Shown: piece by piece, positions 6,101-22,853 of the stretch | Position numbering within the stretch: the stretch's first letter is position 1 | Layout of the letters: the number at the start of each line of letters is the position of its first letter | NCBI GenBank assembly: GCA_947628345.1 | Contig: CANQZM010000006.1 | Coordinates: 1-32,000 of the forward strand | DNA length: 32,000 nucleotides | DNA from: an uncultured Bacilli bacterium | Lineage (GTDB): Bacteria; Bacillota_I; Bacilli_A; RF39; UBA660 | Reading direction: 5' to 3' | Notes under the pieces: generated by a model | Databases searched by the model: none | What the model saw: only the letters and a program-made list of their open reading frames with translations | Told to the model about the DNA's origin: nothing | Translations under genes and position numbers: made by a program

Positions 6101-8251
6101 TTAATTATCAAAGAAATCATCAAAAAATTCATCATCATCGTCATCATCTTCTAAATTAAGATTTTGAACAACTACATCATCCTTATGAATAATTTCTGAT
6201 TCTTTATCACCAATAATCTCTAATTTAGATTCTTCTTTCTTCTTATCATCTAACTCTTTATTTCGTTTTTCTTCTTCTTCTATCTCAGCAATTTTAGCAT
6301 CGATTTTTTTAATTAAATCATCCATATCAAAATTATTAGGAGCTGGTGATTTATCATCCTGTAGACTAGCCATAGGTGGTCTTGAATCCATTTGGGCAAA
6401 GGGATTAAAACCTTGAGACATAAATGGATTGTTAGGATTAGGTATTCTCATATCAGCATTATCCATATTCATACCAAATGGATTAGGTGGTAATGGATTA
6501 ACACCACCTTCTACTTCATCATTAGCATTCATCATTTCTAATAACTTTTTCTTCTTTTCTGATTTTACAAACTCTTTAATATTAAAGGTATGTACTTGTT
6601 GTTTTTGTCTATGAGGATATTTAGCTTGTGGATATTTCTCTCCCCAATCAATTTTAAAATCAGGGGTCATTTTAGTTTTAAATGGCTGTTTTCTAAGACG
6701 CATAATAACAACTTCAAATTGTTTCATTCTTTGTAAATCGGAAACTGTAATTAATGGGGTTGAAGCTGTTTTATCGTCTTTTTTACTTTTTTCTTCACCA
6801 CACATTTTAGATATTTCCTCTAAAGCTGCCAATTCAGTACTAATTAAATAAATGATATTTCCACAGTTTCCTCTAATTGTTTCGGCATCTTCTTTACCAT
6901 ATACTTTATTTAACTGAGCATAGTTTTGAATAATCATTGTAAATCTAATTTGACGAGAACGTGCTGCCGTAATCATAGTGGTAACATCTTTTAAAGGGGG
7001 CATATTAGCAAACTCATCTAACAAGAAATTAGTTCTGATTGGCAATTTACCTCCACACTTTTGAGCTACATCAATTAACGTTTCATAAATTTGTTTTAAT
7101 AAAATTGTTACTAAAGAATGATAAGTTTTCTTTTCATCTTGAATAACAATAAATACTGCCGTTTTTCTTTTTCCGATGGATGCTAAATCAATATCACTAT
7201 AAGATAACATCTCACTTAAATTTTCACGTGAGGCAAATAATTTTACTTTTTGTTTAAATACTGATAAAATTGAACCTTTAGTATCAGTTGGAGCTGTAAT
7301 GGTGGCAAAAGCATTAATTGCAGCTGCGCTAGATGGATCTTTAATTCCAAAATATTCCTTAATATAAGTAGAACCACCAAATTTATCTTCACCAACTGTA
7401 CTCATTAAATTAATACTATTGATATTAATTTCCTGTTCTTTAGCATCTTCAAATAAACCTAAAGCAAGTCCTGAAAAATAATCAGCAGAAGTCTTTTCCC
7501 AAAATGGGTCAGCATTGGTATTAGATTCATCATATAAAATATTTAGAGCTAAATCGTCTAATAATTCGATTGCTTTATCTTGTTTACCACTTTTATAAAC
7601 TTGATAAGGTAAAGACATAGGATTCCAAGCATTACCATGTTGAGGATCACGGAAATTAAGTAATAATATTTGATAACCCTTAGCTCTTAACATTTCTGCA
7701 GAAGATTCATAAATTTCACCTTTAGGGTCAGTAATAATCATACTTTCCCCTTTTTTAGCTAAAAACTTAACTGTAGGTTTAATAATAGTTTCAGTCTTTC
7801 CACTACCAGTAGCACCAATTACTAATGTATGATACTCACTATTATCTACCCAAGCTTCATTATCTTTAAGAATAAGGGGAACACCTGCGACAGTTGATTT
7901 TTTTTGAAGAGGGGTTATATAGGAAAGCTCTTCTTTCATCTCTTTTTCTTTAGACCAACGACTATATCCTTTATTTTTTTTCTCAGTACTAAAACCTACT
8001 CCTTTTTCCATATCAAAAAATCTCGAACTAACACTAGCAATTAATCCCAACAATGATAAAAGGTAAAAAATTAAGGTAGCTGTTATATATTGAGTTGAAA
8101 AGGCTGGTAAAGGATTTAAACCTGATAAATGACCATTTTCAGCTAACGTAGCTAAATTCACAACTCCAATTGAAATGACATATAACAAAAAAATCGCAAA
8201 TAACACAAATATAGCAACATCTTCTGAATCAGCAGTAAATTTAAGTTTCAT
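6101..8251 (-). CDS. type IV coupling protein, VirD4/TraG family
   Basis: 716 aa. N-terminal TM helices, Walker A VIGATGSGKTE, Walker B-like NFLLDEFANMP, then the conserved ARSRQIRFTMIIQNYAQLNKVYG block. A long low-complexity C-terminal tail follows. Confidence 0.9.
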   Translation of the reverse strand: MKLKFTADSEDVAIFVLFAIFLLYVISIGVVNLATLAENGHLSGLNPLPAFSTQYITATLIFYLLSLLGLIASVSSRFFDMEKGVGFSTEKKNKGYSRWSKEKEMKEELSYITPLQKKSTVAGVPLILKDNEAWVDNSEYHTLVIGATGSGKTETIIKPTVKFLAKKGESMIITDPKGEIYESSAEMLRAKGYQILLLNFRDPQHGNAWNPMSLPYQVYKSGKQDKAIELLDDLALNILYDESNTNADPFWEKTSADYFSGLALGLFEDAKEQEININSINLMSTVGEDKFGGSTYIKEYFGIKDPSSAAAINAFATITAPTDTKGSILSVFKQKVKLFASRENLSEMLSYSDIDLASIGKRKTAVFIVIQDEKKTYHSLVTILLKQIYETLIDVAQKCGGKLPIRTNFLLDEFANMPPLKDVTTMITAARSRQIRFTMIIQNYAQLNKVYGKEDAETIRGNCGNIIYLISTELAALEEISKMCGEEKSKKDDKTASTPLITVSDLQRMKQFEVVIMRLRKQPFKTKMTPDFKIDWGEKYPQAKYPHRQKQQVHTFNIKEFVKSEKKKKLLEMMNANDEVEGGVNPLPPNPFGMNMDNADMRIPNPNNPFMSQGFNPFAQMDSRPPMASLQDDKSPAPNNFDMDDLIKKIDAKIAEIEEEEKRNKELDDKKKEESKLEIIGDKESEIIHKDDVVVQNLNLEDDDDDDEFFDDFFDN

Positions 8252-8292
8252 ACTATACCTTCTTCCTTCTTTTTTTATTATATCATCTAATG

Positions 8293-9075
8293 CTAGTTAG
8301 AAACAAGTAATTTAAACATTCCGTCTTTAAATTTATACATTCTATGTCTAATTCCATTATTACTATAATATCCACAACTTAAAATAATTTCATATTGATT
8401 ATCTTCATCAATATCTAAAATGCTATTAATATAGGGTTTACAGCCACTATAAGAGTCTTGAGCATCTTTTTCAATATTTTTATATAAGTAAATAATTTTT
8501 TTATTCTTAATCATGAATACAAAACTAAAATAAGTAGAGCCAACATCTTCTAAAGCAAACTTATTACTTATTGTATAAATTTCTTCTTTTTTTTGATCAT
8601 TATCAATATCTACATAAATAACTGATTGACTAGTTAATATTGAATCTTGTTTAATATCGTTGTCTTTTAACACTTTATTTACATAATCTTTATTACTAAT
8701 ATCATGAGTACTAAATTGTACTACCTTATATTTTATATCACCTTTTAAGGCTAATAAATTACCATTATAATTTACTGGTGAGTTATTTTCTTCAAACAAA
8801 TAAGTTTTATCATCATTATATAAATAATAATTACCAAAATAAACATTATCAACATAAGTATAATATTTTTTCCAATTATATTTATCAATATGGTCAAAAG
8901 AAATATTACTCCATTTGCCACCTTCTTCTTTAAAAATAGCATTATCACCAACTATAATTGTATTAGAGTTAGTAACTTTTTTTATTAAATCTATTCCATA
9001 ATAACAGAAGAAGAAAATAGACAATCCAATTAACAAAACTATTATTATAAAAATTATTTTATTTGTTTTTTTCAT
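8293..9075 (-). CDS. hypothetical N-anchored extracytoplasmic protein (its position fits a VirB8/TcpC-like scaffold, but this is unproven)
   Basis: 260 aa, RBS AAGGAG, one N-terminal TM helix. It has two D-x-D-x-D-like motifs (DIDNDQKKEE, DIDEDNQYE) reminiscent of FG-GAP-type repeats. Confidence 0.35.
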   Translation of the reverse strand: MKKTNKIIFIIIVLLIGLSIFFFCYYGIDLIKKVTNSNTIIVGDNAIFKEEGGKWSNISFDHIDKYNWKKYYTYVDNVYFGNYYLYNDDKTYLFEENNSPVNYNGNLLALKGDIKYKVVQFSTHDISNKDYVNKVLKDNDIKQDSILTSQSVIYVDIDNDQKKEEIYTISNKFALEDVGSTYFSFVFMIKNKKIIYLYKNIEKDAQDSYSGCKPYINSILDIDEDNQYEIILSCGYYSNNGIRHRMYKFKDGMFKLLVSN

Positions 9076-9092
9076 TGCAAACTCCTTATTTA

Positions 9093-11036
9093 TTAAACTT
9101 TAAAGTATGCTAGACGACTTGTATTTTTCCAATTATATTGACTCCACATATTAGTAGAAGTACTTCCAGGATCAAACATATTTATTGTCTCACCTGTAAT
9201 AGAATCTATGGCTACCCAGTGTTGTCCTGTATTACCTTTTACTTCTGCGACTACATAGTAACCAGCATTTAATAAAGATTGTATTGTTTGTAATTTATCC
9301 TTTCTCGATTGGTTACTTACGTCAATCCTATTTTGATATTTAAAATCAGGAGCTACAGTAGTAACAACATTCCACTGTAGATTACCTCTATTATCAAATC
9401 CTCCATTTTTTGATAATGCTTCAACAAATGTTCCTGGATTAAAGTCGCCTACTACATTAGCACTAACACCAGATTTAGCAATTAACATTGAAATAGAAGT
9501 AACTAGACATCCAGCAGTTTCAATAGTAGCATTACTATTACCTAATCTAATATTAGACCATGGTGCATTGTACTGTTTCCAAGAAGTATAATCACCAGTT
9601 GATGTTGATCCTCCTGTACAACTCGCAGTATAAATTGATTTATTAGATCCATATGTTTTTAATAATATTTGTTTATAGTCCAGTAAAAATCCTAATTCCC
9701 TCCAGGCTTTCTGACTACCTGCTGCATTTGTTCCTTCAGAATCATAATTAGTTCCTACAATATAACCAGTATTATTAGTAACCAATAGTTGTCCTGCGGT
9801 TTCTGCTACCCATTGTCTTGTTTTTGCATTTTGTGGTAAAGCATCTTTATAAGTTACCGTATTATTTAGACCCGAATAAACATCTAGACGCTCATTATCT
9901 CTACTTCCGTGTTTTGAACAACCTTGCTCTGGATTACAAAAAACTTGATCGGCAACGCAATTTCTAACTTGTAAAATCCACTGTCCATTTTCATTTTCTA
10001 ATTTGACACCATTAGCTCTATTACCACCTCGAATAGCTCTATCTAAAATAAAGCTTCTTGCTGCTACTGCTTGAGTCTTAGCTTCAGCTTCATTCATACC
10101 TCCACCTACTTCAGCATATACAACTCCTAAAATGTAAGTTTCAAAATCAATTAGAGATTCATCTTCAATTGGAACATTATCAGTACCATCACAAAAACTT
10201 GAATGCATTAATCTAACTTTTATATCCGATACTTGTTGATTAAATTTAACACTAGTTTGACCATTGGTTGCTCCTTTAATATCATAAGTACAAATACCAC
10301 CTGTACTAAAAGCAGAATTCGTAATATCTTTTTCATATTTTGTACCAGCAGCATATTCTTTATCAGGATTTCCAACATCACCATTACTATTATCAGCATC
10401 TTCTTTATCAACAGATCCAATACTACCTACAAGACCAAAAAATATAAGTATAAGGAATAATATAACTCCAGCACCAATATATTTAAACTTATCTTTTCCT
10501 GGTAAAAATCCTGTTCCATAAGCATCTCCAGAGTAGCTTACTTCAGTATCTTTTTGTTCTTCTGTTGAATTATTATCTTCTGTATTACTATTATCCAAAG
10601 AAGAAGGTTTACCTAAACCTTCTTTATCATTTCCAGTATTATTCCCTTCTTTTGGAACACTTTCGGCGGCATCGGCGGCATCAACTGCACCATTTGCAGC
10701 TTGTGCTGCTTGCATAGACATAACTTTATTAGCCGCATCTAAAATTTTAGCATCATCTGCTTTTTTGGCTACTTTTCCAAAGGCACCACCAGTAGCTTTG
10801 TTAACTAAATTGGCAGCCTTACCTTCAACTTTATCTATAGCTTTACCAACACCTGGAACCTTTTTAGCCGTTTCAAAAGCAGCCCCACCAGTTCCACCTG
10901 TAAAGGCATTAATAGCCCCTTTAGCTGCAGTATCAACAGCTTTTTTACTGCTTTGTTGCTCTGCCTGTTTCTTATCATTACGAGCTGCTTGATACTTGTT
11001 TTGATCTTCTTGATTATTTTGGCTATTTTTTGGCAT
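9093..11036 (-). CDS. T4SS-associated bifunctional cell-wall hydrolase (SpoIID-like domain plus papain-like C39-like/CHAP-like Cys peptidase)
   Basis: The SpoIID-like block is ETYILGVVYAEVGGGMNEAEAKTQAVAARSF. The C-terminal candidate Cys/His pair is TAGCLVTSISML ... GQHWVAID. The N-terminal ~190 aa are Ala/Gly/Lys-rich, followed by one TM helix. I prefer the ATG at 11036 (GGTGA RBS) over the GTG at 11045. Confidence 0.7.
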   Translation of the reverse strand: MPKNSQNNQEDQNKYQAARNDKKQAEQQSSKKAVDTAAKGAINAFTGGTGGAAFETAKKVPGVGKAIDKVEGKAANLVNKATGGAFGKVAKKADDAKILDAANKVMSMQAAQAANGAVDAADAAESVPKEGNNTGNDKEGLGKPSSLDNSNTEDNNSTEEQKDTEVSYSGDAYGTGFLPGKDKFKYIGAGVILFLILIFFGLVGSIGSVDKEDADNSNGDVGNPDKEYAAGTKYEKDITNSAFSTGGICTYDIKGATNGQTSVKFNQQVSDIKVRLMHSSFCDGTDNVPIEDESLIDFETYILGVVYAEVGGGMNEAEAKTQAVAARSFILDRAIRGGNRANGVKLENENGQWILQVRNCVADQVFCNPEQGCSKHGSRDNERLDVYSGLNNTVTYKDALPQNAKTRQWVAETAGQLLVTNNTGYIVGTNYDSEGTNAAGSQKAWRELGFLLDYKQILLKTYGSNKSIYTASCTGGSTSTGDYTSWKQYNAPWSNIRLGNSNATIETAGCLVTSISMLIAKSGVSANVVGDFNPGTFVEALSKNGGFDNRGNLQWNVVTTVAPDFKYQNRIDVSNQSRKDKLQTIQSLLNAGYYVVAEVKGNTGQHWVAIDSITGETINMFDPGSTSTNMWSQYNWKNTSRLAYFKV

Positions 11037-11062
11037 CAGTATCACCTACTTCTAACTTACTT

Positions 11063-12853
11063 TTATAGTCCTCCTCCACTACCAAACAAATCTAATTCTT
11101 GCTTAGTTACGGAAATATTAATTCTCATTCTTCTATTACCACAAACAAACAGTGCTTCACCTTGTGAATATCTTTTTATGCTTTCTTTTTCACTCTCATT
11201 CAAATCTATTAATAGACTTAAATCTTCAACAGCCTGTTTCTTTAGTCCCATTACTAAATAGTAAGAGGCATTATCAAAAATAGCTTTACCTTGAGTAATA
11301 ACATTAGGTGCTGAAAAATCACTAGGTTGTTGAGTAATAATAATAGTTCCTGTGTTATACTTACGAGCACGTCTTTGTACCTGAGCCAAGAAATCAGCTC
11401 CCAAAGTATTTTGCTCTCCCAACAAGACATGTGCCTCATCAACCATTAAAACTGTATCTACCCTTGGATCTAGGCACAAACTCCAAGCATATTTTAGAAC
11501 ATTAAAGAATAAAGCATTTTTAACATTAGATTCACTATTCATTAACTCTTTAATATTAAATACCATAAAATCACTATTTCCATTAATTGTCGTATGGCCA
11601 TCAAAGTAGAACTTTAATTCTTTAATGATTGGTCTAATTTTCAACTCTAAACGTTCCATTATATCACGTTCTTGAGTTTGTTCTGTCATTGACATAAGAC
11701 GACCCTTGATAGTTGCATAAACATCAGTGAAGGTTGGATAATCTTCCGATGTAAATCCAGAAAAATCAGTGTTAAAATCAATTCCAAAACGTCTATATGT
11801 ATCTTGAACAATTTCACTAAACATAGTTAAAACGTCTTCTTGAATGGAAGGATCATAATACTTCATAAATGCTTTTAAAAATTGCAATGTTCTAGTTAAA
11901 ACTGTATAACCAAGACCTTGTTTTATTTCATCATCATCAGCATCAATTACAACTTCCAATGGATTAATTAACCCAAATTCGCCACCTTTACCAATATCAA
12001 TTTGATCTCCTCCAAATGCTTTCGTAATTTCAGCATACTCATTTTCAGGATCAATGGCAACAATTTGACAACGATTTCTAATATGGGTTCTAAGCATTAG
12101 TTTAGCTGCGGTTGATTTTCCGGAACCAGAGGTACCTAAAATTATCATATTGGCGTTGTTTCTATTATGTTCTTTTCTTATTTTATATAAAAATTGATTA
12201 AATAGGATTACACCACCTGAAAAATCAACTCCTAATAAAGTAGCTAATCCTGGATCTTTAATACTATCAAAAATAAATGGATACATAGCCGCAATGGTTA
12301 TAGATGGAATTGGCGTTCCAATACGTTCTTCAATATCTTGAGATGGAAAAATTGGTAATATTGATTTAAGAACTTTTTCTTGTTCAAAACGAAGTGACAC
12401 TGCCCTTAATTCCATTGCATCTAAATAATTTTTAACATTTACTTTTTTTAGTTCCAAATCTTCTTTTGTATTTGCGGTAATCATAATATGTAATTGGAAA
12501 TCAAAAATACGGGCTTGACTAGCAGCTAACATGGAAATAAAATACTCTAAGCTCTCATAATCTTGTCTAATTCGCTCACGTGATGTTTGATCTCTTTCTT
12601 TGCTGTATCTTTCTTTTAAATCAGCAACTTGTTTATTTAGCATTTTTGATATCATTGAAAAATCAACAGGAATATGTTTAACAACAACTTTAATTCCTGA
12701 CATATTAGTTAAAGTTGATAAATATCCTGGTTGAATATATCTTGGGTAAGAAACTACTGTCAAAATAGTTGCATATTTATCACTAATAAAGAAATCACTT
12801 GCATTAAAGCTTAATCCCTTAGGGGCTAATTGTCCTCTTAAACTTACACTCAT
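11063..12853 (-). CDS. VirB4-family ATPase, ATPase (C-terminal) portion
   Basis: 596 aa. Walker A ILGTSGSGKST, Walker B VLMVDEAHVLL, and IIITQQPSDF. Its ATG overlaps the TGA of the upstream ORF (ATGA). Confidence 0.9.
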   Translation of the reverse strand: MSVSLRGQLAPKGLSFNASDFFISDKYATILTVVSYPRYIQPGYLSTLTNMSGIKVVVKHIPVDFSMISKMLNKQVADLKERYSKERDQTSRERIRQDYESLEYFISMLAASQARIFDFQLHIMITANTKEDLELKKVNVKNYLDAMELRAVSLRFEQEKVLKSILPIFPSQDIEERIGTPIPSITIAAMYPFIFDSIKDPGLATLLGVDFSGGVILFNQFLYKIRKEHNRNNANMIILGTSGSGKSTAAKLMLRTHIRNRCQIVAIDPENEYAEITKAFGGDQIDIGKGGEFGLINPLEVVIDADDDEIKQGLGYTVLTRTLQFLKAFMKYYDPSIQEDVLTMFSEIVQDTYRRFGIDFNTDFSGFTSEDYPTFTDVYATIKGRLMSMTEQTQERDIMERLELKIRPIIKELKFYFDGHTTINGNSDFMVFNIKELMNSESNVKNALFFNVLKYAWSLCLDPRVDTVLMVDEAHVLLGEQNTLGADFLAQVQRRARKYNTGTIIITQQPSDFSAPNVITQGKAIFDNASYYLVMGLKKQAVEDLSLLIDLNESEKESIKRYSQGEALFVCGNRRMRINISVTKQELDLFGSGGGL

Positions 12854-13404
12854 ACTGGCATCACCGTTCCAAATTCTGTTGTCGTTCCCCCATTTAAGAA
12901 ATTATCCAAAACAACTCTCAAATCCTCATTACTAACCTGTGCAGAATTTAACCCACATGTAGCTAATCCATTAATTAGTAATCTTACCTTTTTCTGAATA
13001 ACATCATCATTTTTTTCTTTAAATAATATGTAATATTCTGTATCAACAATATTATTATTAATAAACATTTGTACTTTATCCATATCTTGTAAAATTAATT
13101 TACGAATTGCTGGAACTTGTACATCATTTAATTCTAGTTGTAATTGAGACATATAAACAGATAAATCTACTGGTCTGTCTGCGACTACCAACCAAAATTC
13201 AAAATCAATCATATTATAAAAGTTTTTAAGACTAATTAAAACATTATCTTGCGAAGATGCATCTAATATGAAAATATTACGGGGAGTTATTTTTACTCCT
13301 GTTACTTTATAATTTCCATAAGTATATATCATACTATTTTGAATTGCTCTTACTGGTAGCCAATCTTCTGTCGATCTTCTCCCTTTTTCTTTTGTGTTCG
13401 CCAA
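12850..13404 (-). CDS. VirB4 N-terminal domain encoded as a separate ORF
   Basis: 184 aa. The pattern DWLPVRAIQNSMIYTYGNYKVTGVKITPRNIF matches the conserved start of Firmicutes VirB4-like ATPases as I recall them. The first in-frame start is TTG at 13404, and the next is ATG at 13332. The two ORFs together total about 780 aa, the usual VirB4 length. Confidence 0.65.
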   Translation of the reverse strand: MANTKEKGRRSTEDWLPVRAIQNSMIYTYGNYKVTGVKITPRNIFILDASSQDNVLISLKNFYNMIDFEFWLVVADRPVDLSVYMSQLQLELNDVQVPAIRKLILQDMDKVQMFINNNIVDTEYYILFKEKNDDVIQKKVRLLINGLATCGLNSAQVSNEDLRVVLDNFLNGGTTTEFGTVMPV

Positions 13405-13696
13405 TTCTCACACACCAACCTTTCCATTCATAATTTCTCTGATTTGAGAAAAATTCAAATAGTTCTAAAATTACATTTAATATATTATGATAATAAGGTA
13501 CTGGCACAACTAAGAAACCCGTGACTAGTGCCGGCAGTAATATAATAACAGTAACTAAAGTTGATGACATAGGTAAAATTATCATAAATAGTACTGTAAT
13601 TAAAACTCCTGTACCAAATAAAATTAAATCAAGTGGTCTAAACATACCAAATATTAATTGTCCCCTCTTTGTATTAGCGGGAATTAAATAATTCAT
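13334..13696 (-). CDS. VirB3-like / PrgI-TcpE-like small membrane protein
   Basis: 120 aa, RBS GGGGTGA. Two hydrophobic helices directly upstream of VirB4. The N-terminus NTKRGQLIFGMFRPLDLILFG is typical of this class. Confidence 0.6.
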   Translation of the reverse strand: MNYLIPANTKRGQLIFGMFRPLDLILFGTGVLITVLFMIILPMSSTLVTVIILLPALVTGFLVVPVPYYHNILNVILELFEFFSNQRNYEWKGWCVRIGEHKRKREKIDRRLATSKSNSK

Positions 13697-13751
13697 CTAA
13701 CATCACCCCTATTTATTAATCATCCTTAACATATCTTCAATACTCATTAGT

Positions 13752-15803
13752 TCAATCTTCATCATCTTTTTTCCTAGCATCTCTTAAATGATCATTAGTT
13801 TGCTCTGCCATTGCCTTATCTGCATCAACGATTTTATCCAATTCTTTCCGTCTTTGTTCAGCTCTATGAACACCTCTATTTCCAGGAATTGCAGCAACAT
13901 TACGAAGTGTTTCTCTAGCATTACCAGTTCTAATTGCTTCACGTCCTTCGTGGGTAAGTAAATCTCTAAATTGAGTATTCCTACTGGCACCATGTGGATC
14001 ACGAAGATCACCATGTTTAGCTCTATATGAACCTCTTTTTCCACCAACACGAGCCACTTCTTCTTCAGCAGCTTTAAATTTACTTTCTGCTTTAGAGGCT
14101 ATTTCTTCTGTACTCTGAGCATAATCAAATCCGGATTGCTTCATATCTTCAATCTGAGCAAGTGTAAAGTCTACTCCTTCTTTAATACCATGTTGCATTC
14201 TATACCAATCTTCAAGTGCTTGTTTTTCACGATCAGTAAGTGAATCATAACCACTATTATTAATTTTATCCTTGATATCTTTAGCATAATCAGCTGCTCT
14301 TCTAGCATCTTGTGCTGCCTCTTCTAATTCATCTAAATGTTGTGGACCTAAATCATGATTTTTCAAATATCTTTCAGCTCGATGCATTCTAGATGCAGTC
14401 ATATTTTTATCACCGGTCATTATCTGGGCCATGTCATTTCGACCACCAGTATAACTATCACCTAAACCTGGTGCTTGTTTACCTTGATTATATGCTGCAA
14501 TTTGGGTATTAGCATTTTCCCTAATACTATCGAACGCATCTCCTAAAGTTCCTTTTTCACGTAAGGCACCCAACCCAGCTAAAGCAGCTGAAAGTCCAAA
14601 ATTACTAAGATTACCCTTTAATCCTAAAGAATCTTTAATAAATTTAGGTGCAGTCCTAGCAAAATAGAACAGCCCAATTATAATAAATATTGTTGAAATA
14701 GCACCTACAATGCCTTTATCAATAGGTAAAACTAAACCTCTTTTATTAATAATTTCCTGAACTAAGAATAAAACAAAGAAAATAATAATAAGTCTTATAA
14801 ATAAATCTAAATAAGTTGAAGTTAAGGCCTTAACCCAAGATGCAAAAGATCCATCCTTAGACGATTTAGGATCAATATAGCTAATAATTGGGATAGGTGC
14901 TAGTAATCTTAACACAGCTAACTTTAAAGCACGAACGGCAATATCAACACAAAAGCCCAACATAACTACTAAAACAAATAATCCACATATAAAAGAGATA
15001 ATTGGAGTATAAACAAATAAATAATTATCATCTTTTCCATTAGGACCGTTACACCAATCATTTAAATTATCATTACTTAAGATAGTGTTAACTGTAACGT
15101 AATCACTTTTATACCTTTCAACTTTATATGATTCTTCATCCTTTAAATTACACATATAATTGGCTGGATCAGTTGCTCCGTCTTCAGTTGCATTTGATTT
15201 TAAATTAATTCTAACAAACGTCTTTAAAATAAATGTTGCCAGTTGCTGGGCATTACCGGAATTATCAGAATCAAAAGCTTGTTGCCCAGTTTCGGATACC
15301 GAATCATTACTAGAAACATCACCTAATACTAATTTTCCTAGTACATTATTAGATAAGACACGTGATTGTAATGAATATAAAACCCCAAATAGTAAACCAT
15401 TCTCGTTTAAGTATGCATTATAACTACCTTCAGTTGCATTTGGTATATTTAGAGGTATGATAGCTGTAAATAATGCTAACATAACAATAATCCTACTAAT
15501 CATTTTACCCATTCCAACTTCTTTATCATTAAATCGATCGGGATTCATAACAGTTTGCATCAAAGAAACTGATACTTTAAAAATCATAAATACACCAATT
15601 ATCATTTGTACTCTGCCATAAAAATCTATAATAACATCTGATGAAAAAATTTGGGCATCTGCAATATTAAAAAATATCTGATAAACAATTACTAGTAAGT
15701 TATAAACAACCTTATCAAAAGTAGCTAATAAAAATCTAATTATATCCATCCACCAATGTGTAACTTGGGTATCAGTTTCCATTGAAAGTGCTAACTGAAA
15801 CAT
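13752..15803 (-). CDS. VirB6/TrbL-like polytopic channel protein with a long charged C-terminal domain
   Basis: 683 aa, RBS GGGGTGA. It has at least 6 hydrophobic segments, one large Cys-containing loop and about 270 aa of hydrophilic C-terminus. The position upstream of VirB3/VirB4 fits a VirB6 role. Confidence 0.6.
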   Translation of the reverse strand: MFQLALSMETDTQVTHWWMDIIRFLLATFDKVVYNLLVIVYQIFFNIADAQIFSSDVIIDFYGRVQMIIGVFMIFKVSVSLMQTVMNPDRFNDKEVGMGKMISRIIVMLALFTAIIPLNIPNATEGSYNAYLNENGLLFGVLYSLQSRVLSNNVLGKLVLGDVSSNDSVSETGQQAFDSDNSGNAQQLATFILKTFVRINLKSNATEDGATDPANYMCNLKDEESYKVERYKSDYVTVNTILSNDNLNDWCNGPNGKDDNYLFVYTPIISFICGLFVLVVMLGFCVDIAVRALKLAVLRLLAPIPIISYIDPKSSKDGSFASWVKALTSTYLDLFIRLIIIFFVLFLVQEIINKRGLVLPIDKGIVGAISTIFIIIGLFYFARTAPKFIKDSLGLKGNLSNFGLSAALAGLGALREKGTLGDAFDSIRENANTQIAAYNQGKQAPGLGDSYTGGRNDMAQIMTGDKNMTASRMHRAERYLKNHDLGPQHLDELEEAAQDARRAADYAKDIKDKINNSGYDSLTDREKQALEDWYRMQHGIKEGVDFTLAQIEDMKQSGFDYAQSTEEIASKAESKFKAAEEEVARVGGKRGSYRAKHGDLRDPHGASRNTQFRDLLTHEGREAIRTGNARETLRNVAAIPGNRGVHRAEQRRKELDKIVDADKAMAEQTNDHLRDARKKDDED

Positions 15804-16338: not shown

Positions 16339-16369
16339 TTTATATTTCATTTTTTTTAATATATTTCGA

Positions 16370-16708
16370 TTAAGCTGCTTGTTCCCAACAATCTGCCCAA
16401 CTATTAGAACTACCTCCAATATTTTCATCATTAGAAGTACCAACTAGTCCCATAATAACTGTTACTAAAGTAACTATAAAGAAAATTAAAACAGCATATA
16501 TACAACGTTTAATCAATCTACTTTGGGCTGCTTTTACTTCCTTGTCATCACTAGAAATAACTGCTTTACCTAAATCAATAGTTCCCATTACAATTAAAAC
16601 AATTGGAATACCTATTTGAATTATTGGTAAAAGTCCCTTTCTAACTAATCTAACAATTGACGTTAATCCTCTACATGGATCTCCGGCACCTATTTGAAAT
16701 AATTCCAT
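16370..16708 (-). CDS. VirB2/TrbC-like pilin-type protein, second paralog
   Basis: 112 aa, RBS AAGGAGAGG. TM1 LLPIIQIGIPIVLIVMGTIDLGKAVI, loop SSDDKEVKAAQSR, TM2 IYAVLIFFIVTLVTVIMGLVG. It shares the G.ID..KA.I.SD.....K.AQ pattern with the 145-aa protein. Confidence 0.6.
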   Translation of the reverse strand: MELFQIGAGDPCRGLTSIVRLVRKGLLPIIQIGIPIVLIVMGTIDLGKAVISSDDKEVKAAQSRLIKRCIYAVLIFFIVTLVTVIMGLVGTSNDENIGGSSNSWADCWEQAA

Positions 16709-16730: not shown

Positions 16731-16750
16731 ACTATTGTAAACTATTGTAG
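16731..16750 (-). repeat. tandem 10-nt direct repeat ACTATTGTA(A/G) x2 in the promoter region
   Basis: Plus strand actattgtaa actattgtag at 16731-16750. Each copy carries a TACAAT hexamer on the minus strand. Confidence 0.9.
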
Positions 16751-16763
16751 GTATCTTTGTCAA
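16734..16763 (-). promoter_or_regulatory. sigma-A-like promoter for the 112-aa VirB2-like gene (-35 TTGACA, 18-nt spacer, -10 TACAAT)
   Basis: Minus strand has consensus TTGACA at 16763-16758 and TACAAT at 16739-16734. It lies in the 76-nt gap after the TadZ-like gene. Confidence 0.5.
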
Positions 16764-16784: not shown

Positions 16785-17777
16785 TTACCTTTTACCAAAA
16801 ATACCAAATATTTTATTACCTTCACTTTTTCTAGCGGCAGTATTATCAATTAATCCCAACCTATACAATAAATCATGTAACATTGGATTTTTGGCTCTTT
16901 CATCTAATGCAGGAATACTGTAAAAGAATTTTACAGATGCTTCATATTCCAATTCATTGATATCTTTATTAGATAACATACATTTATTTAGCACTATTTT
17001 TTTATTTTGTAGTTTTTCAAAGACTGTGCGATTGGTTTTTACTAACTTATTTAACATGACTGTGCTAGGTTCAAGTAAATATAAAATTTCATCACACATA
17101 GTATCTGTTTTACAATTATTTAAATCAATAATTACTACTATAGGATGATCTAACCCTGCTATTTTTTTCATTAACTCGCTTTCATTAACTGAAAACATAT
17201 TTTTGTCATTGAAATATACAAAATCCTTTTTATTTACTTCAATTGCATATACTGAGTTACCATAAATATCTGTTAATTCTTTTTTTAACATATATGATAA
17301 AGTAGTTGCCCCAGCATGTTCAGTAACATTTTTTATTCCTAGAATTTTATTACTTCTACCAGCGCCACTTACCCTATTACTGATTTCTGCAGATGCATTA
17401 TTAAGTTGTTGAATTTTTTCTACATCTTTATAAGTATTAGGCTTTTCAATTAATTGTTTTATAGCATTTATATTATTAGTAAAATTATAAATACCCATTG
17501 ATACCAAATTAGATAAATAATTACCTGAAGTACATACTTCATCAGTAAGTACTAGAATTAATTTACTTTCTCCCAGTCCTATAGCAAGTTGCTTTATATT
17601 TTGTATATCTTTATAATTTTTTATAGCTGTAATATCTAAAATCATTCTATCAAAAAAGAAGTCTTTGAATATCGCAACTAATTCATTAACTTCAAATTCA
17701 CCAGTGACATCTTTTATAACTTCGATATCAAGATTAGATAATGAATCTTTTCTTTCATTAGCTACTACAACATTCAA
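16785..17777 (-). CDS. TadZ/CpaE-like protein: receiver-like N-domain plus ParA/MinD-like domain with a degenerate Walker A
   Basis: 330 aa. TTG start with RBS AAGGAG 8 nt upstream. The segment ILGIKNVTEHAGATTLSYML sits where the deviant Walker A (KGGxGK[ST]) would be. Hydrophobic beta-strand patterns such as VVIIDLN are ParA-like. Confidence 0.4.
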   Translation of the reverse strand: MNVVVANERKDSLSNLDIEVIKDVTGEFEVNELVAIFKDFFFDRMILDITAIKNYKDIQNIKQLAIGLGESKLILVLTDEVCTSGNYLSNLVSMGIYNFTNNINAIKQLIEKPNTYKDVEKIQQLNNASAEISNRVSGAGRSNKILGIKNVTEHAGATTLSYMLKKELTDIYGNSVYAIEVNKKDFVYFNDKNMFSVNESELMKKIAGLDHPIVVIIDLNNCKTDTMCDEILYLLEPSTVMLNKLVKTNRTVFEKLQNKKIVLNKCMLSNKDINELEYEASVKFFYSIPALDERAKNPMLHDLLYRLGLIDNTAARKSEGNKIFGIFGKR

Positions 17778-17790
17778 AATATCAACTCCT

Positions 17791-18267
17791 TTAATGTGAT
17801 TTTATAGCTTTAGTTGTTCCATTAACTTGAAAAATTTTCATGTTAGGTATAAATTTATTAAGTAGAGGAATATCAATATTAACAGCTGTAGTTACTGTAT
17901 AGTATTTTACTGGTAATTCTCCAGTACTACGATTTTGTTCTACAACACAAAATCCCAAAGTATTGTCACAATATGGATCACTACAACTTATTCCTGTAGA
18001 ACCATTACATTCAGCAGGAACATCTGCATTTAATTGAGTACTTAAACTATAACCGATTGATTTCCTATATCCATCAATAGTTTTTGTTAATACACTGTTG
18101 GATTCTCCAACACCTACTCCTTCATACTGCTCAATCAAATTAATTATTTTATTTTTGTATCTAAAGGCTTTATTATAGTTTGCCGCAAAAGCTAAATAAC
18201 CATTTACAATCACGATAAATACCACAATAAACCCAATATTGACTATTCCACCTAACGCATCACGCAT
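17791..18267 (-). CDS. pilin-like (TadE/minor-pilin-like) N-anchored protein with a 4-Cys C-terminal region
   Basis: 158 aa. A short basic leader MRDALGG precedes the hydrophobic helix IVNIGFIVVFIVIV. The Cys cluster is CNGSTGISCSDPYCDNTLGFC. It lies directly downstream of the Flp-like ORF. Confidence 0.4.
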   Translation of the reverse strand: MRDALGGIVNIGFIVVFIVIVNGYLAFAANYNKAFRYKNKIINLIEQYEGVGVGESNSVLTKTIDGYRKSIGYSLSTQLNADVPAECNGSTGISCSDPYCDNTLGFCVVEQNRSTGELPVKYYTVTTAVNIDIPLLNKFIPNMKIFQVNGTTKAIKSH

Positions 18268-18313: not shown

Positions 18314-18466
18314 TTATTTAGGCTTACCTTGACTAATAGAATTCCATTGTTGATTAATTGATGTCTTGATATTTGGCCACATAAATGTCAAAAAGAATGC
18401 ACTAACTGCGGCGATAGCTATCAATGTAATAACCGTTAAATTTAATTCTCCTGATGCTGCCTTCAT
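18314..18466 (-). CDS. Flp-like small pilin candidate (50 aa), absent from the ORF track
   Basis: Hand translation gives MKAASGELNLTVITLIAIAAVSAFFLTFMWPNIKTSINQQWNSISQGKPK. It has a short basic leader ending in Gly, a ~22-aa hydrophobic helix and a short polar tail. RBS AAAGGAAG. It sits between the TadC and pilin-like genes behind a strong promoter. Confidence 0.5.
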   Translation of the reverse strand: MKAASGELNLTVITLIAIAAVSAFFLTFMWPNIKTSINQQWNSISQGKPK

Positions 18467-18501
18467 ATACAATATACACTTCCTTTCATCTTATATAAAT
18501 T

Positions 18502-18530
18502 ATTATACCAATTTTTTTTAATTTTAACAA
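18502..18530 (-). promoter_or_regulatory. strong sigma-A-like promoter for the Flp-like ORF (-35 TTGTTA, 17-nt spacer, extended -10 TGgTATAAT)
   Basis: Minus strand reads TTGTTA (18530-18525), AAATTAAAAAAAATTGG, TATAAT (18507-18502), with TG at 18510-18509. Confidence 0.55.
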
Positions 18531-18554
18531 TATAGTTTTTGTATATAATTTTTA

Positions 18555-19340
18555 TTATGATAAATTAAACATACCCATCATTGAAATTAAGACTATAACC
18601 ATAACCGAAATACCTGTTACAACAAGCATAATCATTGTTAAACTTTCCATATGTCCTAAACGTTCTTTATATTTAATTTCACGAGCTTTATTTTGTAAAT
18701 TTGACACCGTTCTAGAAAACATCATTAAACGTTCTTGTTTATTTTCTTGAGAACCAATACCTAAACGATAAAGTAATCTCATCATTCGCATTGAATCTCG
18801 AACTGGATAAGTATTAGAAAATTCCATATAAGGATCAATACTAGAATCACCAGCATTAACTCTTTCTACAATTTTTCTTAATCCAGGTTTAAAAATTTCT
18901 GGAGCATCATCAATTGATTTACCAATGGCAACAGGAACAGTATAATGCTGTATCAAAATTTCTAAGCTCTTTAAATAATATGGCAACATAATGTCAATTT
19001 CATGTAAATGAGCTTTATAATACTGTTGTAATTGTAAATATGGTAATTTAAAAACTCCAAACATTATAGCTATAGTAATAACAATATTTATTAAGGAAAT
19101 ATCACCTAAAATGAGTATTAAGAAAATAAATCCAACTATCAACCCTGTTGTTATTCTTTTTCTAAATAATAAATCTGGTACTACATCCTCTCCATAACGA
19201 GCATATAATAAGAAATCATAGTCTTCTTCTCTTAAAACTTGAAAATATTTTTCATTATCAATCAAAAATTTTTTACCATCAACTGTTTTATTATAAAATA
19301 ATATAAAAACTATAATGGCACAAACTATAATAATTTCCAT
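18555..19340 (-). CDS. tadC: TadC-like platform protein (T2SS-F / GspF family)
   Basis: 261 aa. TM helices flank a helical cytoplasmic domain (YLKSLEILIQHYTVPVAIGKSIDDAPEIFKPGLRKIVERVNAG...), with a C-terminal TM. It is coupled to TadB by a TAATG overlap. Confidence 0.65.
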   Translation of the reverse strand: MEIIIVCAIIVFILFYNKTVDGKKFLIDNEKYFQVLREEDYDFLLYARYGEDVVPDLLFRKRITTGLIVGFIFLILILGDISLINIVITIAIMFGVFKLPYLQLQQYYKAHLHEIDIMLPYYLKSLEILIQHYTVPVAIGKSIDDAPEIFKPGLRKIVERVNAGDSSIDPYMEFSNTYPVRDSMRMMRLLYRLGIGSQENKQERLMMFSRTVSNLQNKAREIKYKERLGHMESLTMIMLVVTGISVMVIVLISMMGMFNLS

Positions 19341-20233
19341 TACTCAGCCCCCACATTCTCATTATAATATTTTTCTCCTCTCATGAGAAAGATACTATTA
19401 ACTATTGCTGCTCCATGCATCAATATTTTAACTATTGGCTTTTCTAAAAGGAGCAAATATGATTCTCTTCCTAATAAAAGTTGAGTTAACATTAATAAAA
19501 AATATAACATTATTCCAAATTGTAGGAATTGTTTATGGAAAGTTGCTCTATCTTGTCTATCACGATAAACACTTTCTACTAACATATCAATATCTTGTTG
19601 CATATTTTCCAAACTATCTGCTGAATTTCTCGCACCTTCTTTTGTAATTTGTAAAAATAATTGATGCATATTTTTAACAATATAATATGGATATAAATTA
19701 GACATATATTTTAGAGCCTCATCAATTGTTCCATTTTGGTAAGATAACTCTATCATATGATTAACATCAGTTTTTACGGGATCTTCTAAAACACCTGAAT
19801 CTCTAACTCCTTCAATTGATTTTACAAATGACTGAGTTGTTGCAAATTCCATAATAGTGTTTGAGGTATATACTTGAACTTGTTCAAAAATAAATTCACT
19901 GTAAATTCTTTTACATCTTAAATATGATAGATAAGGAATTACCATAATAACTGCAACGACATAAATTACACTAATTACAACATTATAGAAATACAAATAA
20001 CTAATTACTGCGGTAAAAGTAGAAAATACAGCTACTTGAATAGCGTATTGTCTCACAGTATACTCTTTTCCCAATTGCTTTGTCTTTTCTCTAACTACTT
20101 TAAATGAATAAGGAGCAAATTTTTCATAGACAGTTCCGACTTTATCAGTAATAAATTTACCTACATTTTGTCCTTCGTAACTACGATATAAAATTACTAC
20201 TCCTGTTATAAGTAGTAGAAGAATCAATTCCAT
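19340..20233 (-). CDS. tadB: TadB-like platform protein (T2SS-F / GspF family)
   Basis: 297 aa with the same architecture. It has an N-terminal TM, an internal TM pair, the helical domain (FVKSIEGVRDSGVLEDP...IDEALKYMSNLYP...ITKEGARNSADSLENM) and C-terminal TM helices. Confidence 0.65.
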   Translation of the reverse strand: MELILLLLITGVVILYRSYEGQNVGKFITDKVGTVYEKFAPYSFKVVREKTKQLGKEYTVRQYAIQVAVFSTFTAVISYLYFYNVVISVIYVVAVIMVIPYLSYLRCKRIYSEFIFEQVQVYTSNTIMEFATTQSFVKSIEGVRDSGVLEDPVKTDVNHMIELSYQNGTIDEALKYMSNLYPYYIVKNMHQLFLQITKEGARNSADSLENMQQDIDMLVESVYRDRQDRATFHKQFLQFGIMLYFLLMLTQLLLGRESYLLLLEKPIVKILMHGAAIVNSIFLMRGEKYYNENVGAE

Positions 20234-20248: not shown

Positions 20249-21553
20249 TTACTGATTGGTTTGATTTGGTGTAGCCATAGCTACATTAACCATATTGTTA
20301 GATACATTTTGTACTCCTCCCAATGCTGAATTTGCAGAAATAGGAGATTGAATTGTACTAATATTTGGTACATTCACTGTTTGAACAGGAGTTGCAACTG
20401 GCATTGCTACTTGTGTAGCAGGAGCTGGTTGAGAAACTGCCTGAGGTTGAGCAGCCTGAGCATTAGCCATGTTTGTATGTGTTGCCTGTTCTCCTTCTTT
20501 CATTTTACTAGTTATTGCATTTATATCAATATTTTGATTTTCCAAATATTCAATTAAATGAGCACTAGGTTTATTTTGCACAGGAGGTTTTCCAAATACT
20601 TTACGATAAATAGTATGTGACTGTGGATTATTATTATCATCCACATAAAATTCAACTACTTCATCTACTTCTCGATGAAATTTTCCATATTCTTTACTAT
20701 AATAAGCTTTAATATGTACCCCCAACTGAATATATCTATAAATAGTTGACAAAAATTGATTAACATCTAAATCAGTTTCCATCAAACTGTATAAACGATA
20801 TGGTATAGCACTGGCTTTATCCGCATGTATTGTGGATAAAATATTATGTCCTGATGAAATTGAATTACGAACCGCACTTACAGCTTCAGCACTACGAACT
20901 TCTGATAATAAAATCCACTTTGGATTTTGTCTCATACATGTAACTAAAACATCAGAATAACTAGCTACATTATTTGTTTTCATAGCTACAATATCTCGCT
21001 GTGGAAAAATTTTATCCAAGTGAAGTTCCAAAGTATCTTCAATGGTAATAACTTTTTCTGTTTCAATTGTATGACTAGCTAAATATTTAATAAATTCTGT
21101 TTTTCCTGAACCTGTTTCTCCAGCTACCATAATATTACAATGTCCTTCTACACACTTAATCAAAATATCATGAATATCAGCTGTAAAATAATCTTCTTGT
21201 AATAATTTATTTTTCTCTAATCTAATTTTTGCTGGTGTTTTACGAATAACACAGGCAATTCCGTTAGTAGCAATCGACTGATGAACGAAATTAAAACGTA
21301 ATTCAGCCGATTCGGCATCTAGAAAAGGTTTTGCATTATTAAAGGTAGTACCCATAACATTTGAACATTGAAAAGCAAGTTTTTCCATAAATTCTGGAGT
21401 TAGACCTGGAATTTCAATACGTTGAGAGCCTTGAGTTAAGGAACGAATCCAAATCTGACCACCATTACAAAATGAAATATCAGTAATATCATCATTATCT
21501 AGTAATGGTTTTAAAGGACCAAAATCAAGCTTATCAAAAACATTTTCTGTCAT
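20249..21553 (-). CDS. tadA: TadA/CpaF-type secretion ATPase (T2SS-E / VirB11 superfamily) with a Gln/Ala/Pro/Val-rich C-terminal tail
   Basis: 434 aa, RBS GGAGG. Walker A VAGETGSGKTEF, Walker B region ILLSEVRSAEA and His box GHNILSTIHA. Confidence 0.85.
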   Translation of the reverse strand: MTENVFDKLDFGPLKPLLDNDDITDISFCNGGQIWIRSLTQGSQRIEIPGLTPEFMEKLAFQCSNVMGTTFNNAKPFLDAESAELRFNFVHQSIATNGIACVIRKTPAKIRLEKNKLLQEDYFTADIHDILIKCVEGHCNIMVAGETGSGKTEFIKYLASHTIETEKVITIEDTLELHLDKIFPQRDIVAMKTNNVASYSDVLVTCMRQNPKWILLSEVRSAEAVSAVRNSISSGHNILSTIHADKASAIPYRLYSLMETDLDVNQFLSTIYRYIQLGVHIKAYYSKEYGKFHREVDEVVEFYVDDNNNPQSHTIYRKVFGKPPVQNKPSAHLIEYLENQNIDINAITSKMKEGEQATHTNMANAQAAQPQAVSQPAPATQVAMPVATPVQTVNVPNISTIQSPISANSALGGVQNVSNNMVNVAMATPNQTNQ

Positions 21554-21588: not shown

Positions 21589-22392
21589 TTATTCTGTCCA
21601 CTCTGTAACTCTATTAATAAAGTCTCTTAAATCATTACTACTTAATTTTAAATCCCCTGGTTTATCTTTTAAGCTTTCATCAGTTGGAACAGGGATTAAT
21701 TCAGAGTCATATGCTCTTAGGAAACCAGCCTTTTTAAGTAATATATAATAGTCAGATGGCACAGCAAAAATTATCATGCTAGGTTCTCCTTTTTCATTAA
21801 CATTGGCAAATACATTATTACCAGCACTATCTAATACAGCTAAAACTTCAACATTTTCAATTAGTTTACCAACCATTATTTTATCTGTTGTTGTAATTTG
21901 TTGTCCCTCTTCAATAGCATTCATAGCCTTCAAATAAATATCAATATAGTTACCTGGAACAATTGAATTACCATAAGTAGAATTAATATCTACTGATAAA
22001 TTATATAGTACATAACCATTTGGATAGTCATAAATAATCTTATCAGGTAATTGATCTTTTGTTACAACTACAGATTTATAAAACAAACTACCTGCTGGAA
22101 TAATTGTATCGGTTCTAGCAAATTTATCTAATACTTCACTTCTATTAGTATAAGCAGCTCCATCACTAACAGTTTCACTAGAAACATTTTTTTCATCAAT
22201 CATATCATCAGTAATCTGAGTTCCTGGTGATATATCTACTTTAGCATATGGAACTTTAATTGGAGTAATAGCTTTATTTACTCGTGAATTATAACCAAAG
22301 TACAAAACAAAGACAGCTGCTACAATTCCTAGAATTGTAACAGTGTTTTTGTTCGACAAAAATTTTTTTATACCAACACTCAAACTTCCCAT
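21589..22392 (-). CDS. CpaB/RcpC-like Flp pilus assembly protein (N-terminal TM plus SAF-like domain)
   Basis: 267 aa, RBS GGAGGAG. The TM helix is followed by IKVPYAKVDISPGTQITDDMI... and ...IIPAGSLFYKSVV, which matches the SAF/CpaB pattern. Confidence 0.55.
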   Translation of the reverse strand: MGSLSVGIKKFLSNKNTVTILGIVAAVFVLYFGYNSRVNKAITPIKVPYAKVDISPGTQITDDMIDEKNVSSETVSDGAAYTNRSEVLDKFARTDTIIPAGSLFYKSVVVTKDQLPDKIIYDYPNGYVLYNLSVDINSTYGNSIVPGNYIDIYLKAMNAIEEGQQITTTDKIMVGKLIENVEVLAVLDSAGNNVFANVNEKGEPSMIIFAVPSDYYILLKKAGFLRAYDSELIPVPTDESLKDKPGDLKLSSNDLRDFINRVTEWTE

Positions 22393-22409: not shown

Positions 22410-22853
22410 CTAGTTAGCTCTTATATCAGAAACAAGTTGTTCTGCTAATACATCTTTTTTGTTATTACTTTCGATAATCATATCCAATCTAGTAGTAATA
22501 TCTATATCTGATTCATAGAAAGTTTTACTAGTAGCACTTTTTACTTCTACACTAACTTTAGGTGGAATTTCGTTGACATCGTAGAAACTAATTTGATAGT
22601 ATCTACGATCATCAACGCTTCGTGCAAATCTTTTTAGAAAACTTTCTGCAAATTTTTCTTTATCCATTCTAATTACTGATTGCTCTCTATAATAACTTAA
22701 ATCAACTGCATCTTCTAAAGCTGCTTCTGTTGTCTCTTTTAATAGATAATAATCTAGTTCTTGACCCGTGGTATAATTTTGAATAACATTTATGACACCT
22801 AAAGCCATTAGGCTTAATAATATAATTCCTACTGTTAACATTGCTTTATTCAT
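22410..22853 (-). CDS. hypothetical N-anchored small protein
   Basis: 147 aa, RBS GGTGA. One N-terminal TM helix and no recognisable motif. It could be a VirB8-like or pseudopilin-like accessory protein. Confidence 0.3.
   Translation of the reverse strand: MNKAMLTVGIILLSLMALGVINVIQNYTTGQELDYYLLKETTEAALEDAVDLSYYREQSVIRMDKEKFAESFLKRFARSVDDRRYYQISFYDVNEIPPKVSVEVKSATSKTFYESDIDITTRLDMIIESNNKKDVLAEQLVSDIRAN

Follow-up and report, generated by a model that had tools for sequence, protein, structure and literature searches.

The 32,000-nucleotide (nt) stretch analyzed here, referred to as the window (28% G+C; positions 1 to 32,000 of contig CANQZM010000006.1 from an uncultured Bacilli bacterium), carries a Tad-like and type IV secretion gene cluster on its minus strand. 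Within this cluster, a first-pass annotation had pointed to a 50-codon open reading frame (ORF) as that of a Flp-like pilin. We found that this ORF is a real gene that is conserved and under purifying selection, and we consider it probable that its product serves as the major pilin in a type IV filament of a divergent Tad type (type IVc or archaeal-like) made by a Gram-positive-type gut bacterium. By profile and motif, the predicted pilin is not a member of the Flp_Fap family, but its anatomy and context resemble those of a member wherever they can be tested.

The pilin-like coding sequence (18314..18466, minus strand) runs from an ATG at 18466-18464 to a stop codon at 18316-18314 and encodes 50 amino acids (aa) plus the stop (MKAASGELNLTV...GKPK; complete translation MKAASGELNLTVITLIAIAAVSAFFLTFMWPNIKTSINQQWNSISQGKPK, within which lies the peptide SINQQWNSISQGKPK). 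Residues 1-6 are a putative class-III-like signal, and residues 10-45 are a single helix that is followed by a short and variable C-terminal tail. The TadC-like ORF upstream ends at 18555, leaving a gap of 88 nt (18467-18554) before the pilin. What the first-pass annotation had stated on the ORF, on the signals preceding it, and on this 88-nt gap was all correct, with the minus strand as the coding strand. Its description of the ORF as unannotated was only partly right, as public gene callers do call the 50-aa product, which nevertheless has no name and no Pfam or NCBIfam family. The ORF listing extends the frame to a TTG at 18472, which we rejected as the start because the extension is not kept in relatives. 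The conserved start is the ATG codon, and GTG or TTG are sometimes found at the same position in relatives. An N-x-T sequon (codons 9-11, 18434-18442; N-L-T, N-M-T in the sister subfamily described below) is invariably present where the hydrophobic helix starts, adjoining the invariant Glu7.

Homologues of the pilin are numerous. A word-seeded search collected 638 clusters at 90% identity, none of which was named or had a Pfam domain, and an exhaustive HMMER scan of 1.84 billion representatives yielded 635 clusters at 50% identity with E <= 1e-3. In almost all of the 150 clusters listed, the HMMER matches began at residue 1 of the hit. The alignment shows a near-invariant pattern, M-K-A-A-[TS]-G-E-L-N-L-T-V-I-T-L-I-A-I-A-A-V...FF...WP. 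A sister subfamily of 80-107 aa (MKEATGELNMTV..., 1897 clusters) has Cys-rich tails, and both groups together comprise about 2,500 clusters at 90% identity.

In 78 genome loci that were ascertained by pilin peptide patterns, the comparison of nonsynonymous (pN) and synonymous (pS) differences over codons 1-26 gave a pS of 0.54, a pN of 0.046, and a pN/pS of 0.085. As a check for ascertainment bias, we also analyzed 80 metagenome loci that were found solely via the neighboring TadC-like protein and not via the pilin. The pilin ORF was present in at least 67 of the 70 loci that had enough downstream DNA, a few of which had an insertion between tadC and the pilin gene. With a pS of about 0.55, pN/pS was 0.22 at codons 2-26 of these loci, and codons 2-6 were at least as constrained as the helix (0.096 vs 0.25). 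The alternative frames across the region contain many stop codons, and among thousands of homologues the DNA is variable while the peptide is invariant. Conservation of the ORF with a synonymous-biased substitution pattern, which had been proposed as a check of the pilin gene, is thus borne out (at least 67 of 70 loci, pN/pS 0.09-0.22).

The first-pass annotation had further suggested that the pilin gene has a dedicated promoter, as would be expected for a subunit that is needed in excess. The elements in question, all on the minus strand, are a -35 hexamer TTGTTA (18525..18530), a spacer of 17 nt, an extended -10 element TGgTATAAT (18502..18510), and a Shine-Dalgarno region GAAAGGAAGTG (18477..18487) that contains the previously noted AAAGGAAG at 18479-18486. 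As promoter-like matches are about as common in the window as in shuffled sequences (117 found, 95.8 +/- 8.7 expected), a promoter call from this single sequence is not significant on its own. When we compared the upstream regions of 77 genome loci anchored on the start codon, three conserved blocks became apparent, with the intervening sequence free to vary. A TTGnnn hexamer with a 16-17 nt spacer was kept in 75 of the 77 loci (17 nt in 70 of them), the extended -10 element TGnTA[TC]A[AC]T in 76, and the Shine-Dalgarno sequence [AG]AAGG[AG] likewise in 76, whereas the distance from the end of the -10 element to the ATG ranged from 30 to 55 nt. As a control, the same motif criterion was applied to ten other cluster genes over the upstream 120 nt of each, which resulted in 0-5 matches per ~70 loci. 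The phylogenetic footprint therefore argues decisively for a real promoter internal to the cluster, which is presumably active.

Two further genes have sites of their own, namely the two VirB2-like T4SS_pilin genes (Pfam PF18895, minus strand) at 16370-16708 and 15833-16270. The first is preceded by TTGACA-18-TACAAT at 16734-16763 (minus strand; kept in 49 of 75 loci) and the second by TTGATA-17-TGnTATACT at 16310-16338 (minus strand; kept in 54 of 75 loci). As sites were found for these three genes and few for others, the internal promoters mark exactly the three small structural-subunit genes of the cluster, in agreement with the argument that a subunit is needed in excess. No terminator or attenuator was found after the pilin gene, where folding was no stronger than in shuffles (z-score about 0). 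The gap to the next gene has a median length of 20 nt across the 77 loci and is 46 nt long in the window.

The anatomy of the predicted protein is that of a small, all-helical subunit with one hydrophobic helix, as is typical of Flp/Fap pilins. AlphaFold2 predicted a single helix for residues 10-45 with a mean predicted local distance difference test score (pLDDT) of 85 and a core pLDDT of 95. The mean pairwise identity is 80% over residues 1-25 and 51% over the next 14, and the length of the C-terminal tail ranges from 6 to 32 residues. In the sister family, the tails contain six Cys in 117 members, four in 27, and two in 11, with an odd number in only 3 of 186. These even counts indicate that the tails form disulfide pairs, with the C-terminus placed outside the cell. 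Weak zf-RING matches of the Cys-rich tails could have been read as Zn-ribbons, but numbers of 2, 4, and 6 Cys fit disulfide pairs better.

With its short leader, a Gly6 at the putative -1 position, and a hydrophobic helix, the protein fits a class III architecture, although it matches no class III profile and its leader is not basic. The proposed cleavage boundary at Gly6 gained support from larger pilin-like paralogues, which begin with M-[KR]-[DE/A]-[AST]-x-[GS] followed by a hydrophobic helix (MKEAIGGTW, MRETIGSTW, MKESIGVLS, and MRDALGGIV in the window) and thus share a motif that ends with Gly or Ser at position 6. By analogy, such a motif common to small and larger proteins is how the major and minor pilins of one system would appear. 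The most recurrent weak Pfam match was to the N-terminus of archaeal type IV pilins (9 of 40 members, best E 0.0028), and the gathering score of this profile (PF07790) was not reached, the window protein scoring 14.7 bits against a cutoff of 25.2 bits.

The pilin gene lies between a TadC-like gene on its 5' side and a gene for a 158-aa pseudopilin-like protein on its 3' side, as had been recognized in the first-pass annotation, and the wider surroundings are likewise of the Tad type. Reportedly, as proposed by Denise and co-workers in 2019, the type IV filament superfamily is defined by an ATPase, a membrane platform, and a pilin. The cluster encodes a secretion ATPase of the PilB/CpaF/FlaI family, as found in this superfamily: the CpaF/TadA-type ATPase (20249..21553, minus strand) matches Pfam T2SSE with 1.8e-26, and its best relatives in the PDB are CpaF (2e-19) and FlaI (7e-18), followed by VirB11 (7e-13). 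It is preceded by a DUF5411 protein with an N-terminal transmembrane helix (22410..22853, minus strand; Pfam DUF5411 3.6e-49) and by an RcpC/CpaB-like protein (21589..22392, minus strand), which has sub-threshold matches only (Pfam RcpC 4e-5 and SAF; NCBIfam pilus_cpaB 4e-8). DUF5411 recurs in the sister-lineage locus L087 and in a Priestia plasmid and marks such Tad-like modules in Bacillota.

The platform would be formed by two polytopic proteins, a TadB-like protein of 297 aa (19340..20233) and a TadC-like protein of 261 aa (18555..19340), both on the minus strand. In hhalign comparisons, the former was related to a Priestia "type II secretion system F family protein" (97%, E 4.4e-11) and the latter to a TadC-like protein of the Priestia plasmid (97%, E 1.8e-10), and the two proteins show weak mutual similarity, suggestive of paralogy. 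Neither has a direct match to Pfam T2SSF, PDB profile searches with them were negative, and so was hhalign against E. coli GspF. The Priestia protein, which owes its name to PGAP, itself matches Pfam T2SSF with E 3.4e-5 and 24.2 bits, just under the 25.2-bit cutoff. The link of the platform proteins to the T2SS-F family is thus transitive only, via the Priestia plasmid proteins. An AlphaFold2 model of the TadC-like protein was discarded, as it had a pLDDT of 61 from a shallow alignment (72-99% identity), which made a Foldseek search with this model meaningless.

Downstream of the pilin, the pseudopilin-like protein (17791..18267, minus strand; start MRDALGGIVNIGFIVVF) begins with MRDALG/GIVNIGFIVVF... 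and continues with a Cys-containing globular part; paralogues in the sister-lineage loci L087 and L089 have the same N-terminal M[KR][DE][AST]x[GS] motif. It is followed by a TadZ-like protein of 330 aa (16785..17777, minus strand), whose assignment comes from synteny and a domain recognized from sequence only, with no Pfam match. This protein always accompanies the pilin genes, and its positional counterpart in Priestia has ParA-like matches. While TadA/CpaF, TadB, TadC, and RcpC/CpaB counterparts of the Tad machinery were found, the TadZ- and TadE/F-like calls come from position and sequence features only. Taken by homology and position, what stands beside the pilin is a complete monoderm Tad-like set, and the Tad-type context that had been suggested for the ORF is supported by the CpaF-nearest ATPase, the RcpC/CpaB protein, the T2SS-F-related polytopic pair, and the pseudopilin-like and TadZ-like genes.

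Several findings weigh against the assignment as a pilin of this type. The Flp_Fap profile (PF04964) did not match the window protein at E <= 1, nor did it match 39 of the 40 family members compared, and the N_methyl and Class_IIIsignal profiles had no match among the genuine members. As already cautioned in the first-pass annotation, which had spoken of a divergent class, the G/xxxxEY motif of Flp pilins is absent. The invariant sequence is MKA[AE]..G-E-L-N-[LM]-T-V, with no Tyr, and no cleavage site with Gly at -1 would place a Glu at +5, as the Glu is at +1 after Gly6. PDB profile and Foldseek searches with the pilin returned generic single-helix matches only, such as ATP synthase subunit b. 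The net charge of 0 or -1 of the N-terminal flank is unusual for a class III signal, and positions 2-6 are as conserved as the helix (pN/pS 0.096), which is atypical for a leader that is discarded. Finally, no A24 prepilin peptidase was present among the protein domains of the window, and a phmmer search with E. coli GspO in ~1.96 Mb of related loci found no match, in a test that must be regarded as insensitive because a GspF control was also empty.

The only Flp_Fap match in the comparison, with E 0.011, came from a chimeric sequence. This protein, P0218 (L091, ERZ1767604 NODE_134582), combines a canonical Flp N-terminus (KG/QTLVEY) with the core of the family and was discarded. Its contig is 729 bp long with 0.59x coverage, and the ORF downstream is pieced together from L1-like and ligase-like fragments. 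The assembly chimera is present in public protein collections.

Part of these findings would also suit a filament subunit that no A24 peptidase processes, being either leaderless or cut by another enzyme, with MKAATGE belonging to the mature protein. Besides the missing peptidase in or near the cluster, for which the search was insensitive, and the flank without net positive charge, this alternative could explain why the N-terminus is of fixed length, with matches from residue 1 and ATG, GTG, or TTG at the same codon, and why purifying selection on positions 2-6 is at least as strong as on the helix. We nevertheless regard it as unlikely, as the major and minor pilin-like paralogues have only M1, K/R2, and G/S6 in common, which looks like a cleavage signal, and as we know of no leaderless type IV pilin that has been described. 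Moreover, it is common for prepilin peptidases to be encoded away from a system and to serve more than one (PMC6668835). The sortase of the cluster (26115-26876, minus strand), which has a TLVTC active-site motif and is conserved in 66 of 86 loci and also in L087, was rejected as a processing enzyme for the pilin, since the paralogues have I/L/M-G in place of "ATG" and since no LPXTG-type substrate was found. An LPXTG-like C-terminal sorting signal was not found in any protein of the window.

A second alternative, a small bitopic membrane protein that anchors or regulates the Tad motor or the T4SS (type IV secretion system) membrane complex as a stoichiometric accessory without polymerizing, is still less probable in our view. 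No pilin profile matches above threshold, the sequence matches only generic transmembrane helices (for example ATP synthase subunit b with E 0.006; there is also an NCBIfam match), and the charge distribution does not force an N-in topology. However, the dedicated consensus promoter suggests production in excess over the machine genes, and an accessory of this kind does not account well for the tandem duplications, the hypervariable, Cys-paired C-terminal extensions, or the N-terminal motif shared with larger pilin-like proteins. In addition, the gene is located where a pilin is expected, directly before the pseudopilin-like gene.

It is very improbable that the protein is a VirB2/TrbC-type conjugative pilin of the adjoining T4SS, even though it shares a cluster with VirB4, VirB6, and VirD4, and even though the pilin adjoins the T4SS and not the Tad motor in the sister-lineage loci L089 and L090. 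VirB2-like proteins span the membrane with two helices that a charged loop connects (bioRxiv 10.64898/2025.12.18.695078), whereas the pilin has one helix and no PF18895 match, and the window already contains two genuine PF18895 T4SS_pilin genes, at 15833-16708. The notion that there is no gene at all, and that the gap is a non-coding regulatory element with a chance frame in AT-rich DNA, could appeal to the shortness of the ORF and to the chance frequency of promoter-like matches in the window but is excluded by the retained frame in the independently ascertained loci, the low pN/pS at a pS of about 0.55, the stop-rich other frames, and the invariant peptide over variable DNA.

Returning to the divergent Tad-type pilin, the following course of events can be envisaged. 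A sigma-A-type extended -10 promoter, which is conserved and would be active, and a strong Shine-Dalgarno sequence would raise pilin output above that of the machine genes. The 50-aa product would enter the membrane by its single long helix with the variable C-terminus outside, as the even Cys counts of the sister tails suggest. The invariant M-K-A/E-A-T/S-G would serve as a very short class-III-type signal, and cleavage after Gly6, probably by a prepilin peptidase encoded elsewhere, would leave the Glu at +1. Judging from the homology of the parts, the CpaF-like ATPase and the TadB-/TadC-like platform would extract and polymerize the subunits, the 158-aa pseudopilin-like protein would join the filament, and the TadZ-like and CpaB-like proteins would assist. 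The filament would most likely serve the neighboring T4SS, for example by making or stabilizing cell-cell contact, since, across lineages, the pilin genes keep their linkage with either the Tad motor or the T4SS.

This linkage became apparent from the distribution of the family. The pilin pattern was found at 181 places in a one-genome-per-species collection, and no homologue was found in a plasmid collection. Nearly all carriers are uncultured gut Bacilli (labeled Bacilli, Tenericutes, Mollicutes, or "Mycoplasma sp. CAG:877"), apart from a few bins with other labels. One named example belongs to Bacilli incertae sedis according to NCBI, and in terms of GTDB names the carriers are probably the RF39-type lineage. 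Within reach of the 10-kb flanks, 60-84 of the 86 loci keep synteny over the block that extends from the Ig-like protein to VirB4. In the sister lineages, the pilins are accompanied by the Tad motor with no adjacent T4SS (L087), or the pilins, the pseudopilin-like genes, and a gene for a 348-aa protein are accompanied by the T4SS with no adjacent motor (L089 and L090). Two tandem pilin paralogues with 6-Cys tails, together with two pseudopilin-like genes, are present in both L087 (10001-11563) and L089 (10001-11534). The pilin set thus appears to be the common partner of the Tad motor and the T4SS, and as it stays with the one or the other, we propose that filament and T4SS work together.

The type IV secretion module of the window (6101..15803, minus strand) comprises VirD4, a SpoIID/C39-like hydrolase, VirB4, and TraC-like, VirB3-like, and TrbL/VirB6-like proteins and is syntenic with the pilin in 60-70 of the 86 loci. 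An ORF of 184 aa (12850-13404, minus strand) overlaps the start of VirB4 (11063-12853, minus strand) and has its counterpart, in related loci, in a separate TraC-like (PF26593) protein. Because of this match to a distinct protein in relatives, this lineage seems to encode the N-terminal region of VirB4 in a gene of its own. Despite the presence of VirD4, VirB4, and VirB6, no relaxase or integrase domain was recognized in the cluster of the window. The 25-kb T4SS and Tad-like cluster looks like a chromosomal T4SS rather than an integrative and conjugative element, and a comparable chromosomal T4SS has been reported for Patescibacteria (PMC12102498).

Going further, one may speculate that the whole is a composite apparatus, fixed in the chromosome of genome-reduced gut Bacilli, in which a Tad-type filament and a T4SS with no recognizable relaxase form one contact-dependent machine for the exchange of DNA or protein with neighboring cells, by import or export. 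The pilin would also represent a new class of type IV pilins, with a hexapeptide that is retained or is removed by something else than a canonical, locally encoded A24 peptidase and with the invariant Glu next to the Gly replacing Glu5. We put this forward as a tentative idea to which we give limited credence.

Among known systems, Flp/Fap pilins (PF04964; Aggregatibacter Flp1, Caulobacter PilA) are similar in having ~45-50 residues in the mature form, a single hydrophobic helix, a short polar tail, and a Gly ahead of the hydrophobic segment. They also share the accompanying genes for a CpaF/TadA-type ATPase, a TadB/TadC pair, and RcpC/CpaB, TadZ-like, and pseudopilin-like proteins. The family described here differs in that its genuine members lack a PF04964 match and the G/xxxxEY motif, with Glu at +1 and no Tyr, and in that the leader is six residues long, invariant, and not basic. 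Furthermore, there is no tadV nearby, and the TadB/TadC relatives are too divergent for a direct Pfam T2SSF match. Archaeal type IV pilins (PF07790; class III signal processed by PibD/FlaK/EppA) also have a very short signal and a long hydrophobic helix. They provided the sole recurrent, sub-threshold Pfam similarity, and FlaI is almost as near a relative of the ATPase as CpaF. An origin of Tad systems from archaeal pili is generally assumed (PMC6668835). In contrast to these pilins, the protein has a bacterial host, lacks the usual [KR] at -2 as well as a large globular domain, and scores below the gathering threshold.

The core of DUF5411, SAF/CpaB, CpaF, and platform proteins is shared with uncharacterized CpaF + PilC/GspF + DUF5411 operons found in gut Clostridia (Miller et al. 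2022, PMC9523054) and with the Priestia koreensis plasmid NZ_CP061869.1. The Priestia module (L172, 163726-169505; also L173) encodes, side by side, DUF5411, SAF/CpaB, ParA-like, CpaF, T2SS-F, TadC-like, and 128-aa DUF4320-like (start MSEGVNVAIF) proteins, with a relaxase and a T4SS coupling protein encoded immediately upstream. It differs in that the gene after TadC codes for the DUF4320-like protein. An experimental study of the Clostridia operons or of the Priestia module was not found in the literature searched, and the latter, being in a cultured member of the Bacillaceae, may offer a relative that is amenable to experiments.

Type IVb thin pili of conjugative plasmids (R64 PilS/PilV; TP114) provide another example of a type IV filament that is encoded with a conjugation-type T4SS. 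They stabilize mating pairs (PMC9045228) and are thus a functional analogy for the filament proposed here. These pili belong to diderms and have large pilins and their own peptidase, whereas the system in the window has a monoderm host, a Tad-type motor, a chromosomal cluster, and no recognizable relaxase. The VirB2-like pilins of Gram-positive systems (PrgF, PF18895; bioRxiv 10.64898/2025.12.18.695078) resemble the pilin as small, hydrophobic, and highly expressed structural gene products of a T4SS cluster, and the two PF18895 neighbors in the window also have their own conserved promoters, but the pilin has one helix instead of two, no PF18895 match, and linkage to a type IV filament motor.

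The pilin family is large, unnamed, and invisible to Pfam, NCBIfam, and name-based annotation, and its hosts are abundant uncultured gut Bacilli. As a consequence, Tad-like filaments go unnoticed in these organisms. No type IV filament module inside a monoderm T4SS cluster was found in the conjugation literature searched, and should the filament serve the T4SS, Gram-positive-type transfer systems would gain a second type of pilus. With its invariant hexapeptide signal and Glu at +1, the family offers a natural test of which features are truly required for the processing and assembly of type IV pilins. For these gut bacteria, the predicted pilin is probably also a dominant antigen of the cell surface.

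Every gene between 4767 and 30252 is on the minus strand, and the cluster is situated between housekeeping genes, with rhodanese, DedA, and RmuC on one side and M23 and M29 peptidases on the other. In the direction of transcription, the cluster starts with a 520-aa membrane protein, an Ig-like 594-aa protein, the sortase, a 1088-aa protein, DUF5411, RcpC/CpaB, and the T2SSE ATPase. The middle part consists of the 297-aa and 261-aa polytopic proteins, the pilin, the 158-aa and 330-aa proteins, and the two PF18895 T4SS_pilin genes. The last part comprises TrbL/VirB6, the VirB3-like and TraC-like proteins, VirB4, the SpoIID/C39-like hydrolase, a 260-aa protein, VirD4, and a 436-aa protein. The 436-aa (4767-6077) and 594-aa (26894-28678) proteins at the ends of the cluster, both on the minus strand, are weak paralogues (BLASTP E 7e-4); each has an N-terminal transmembrane helix, and both end with G-x-G-...-PYII.

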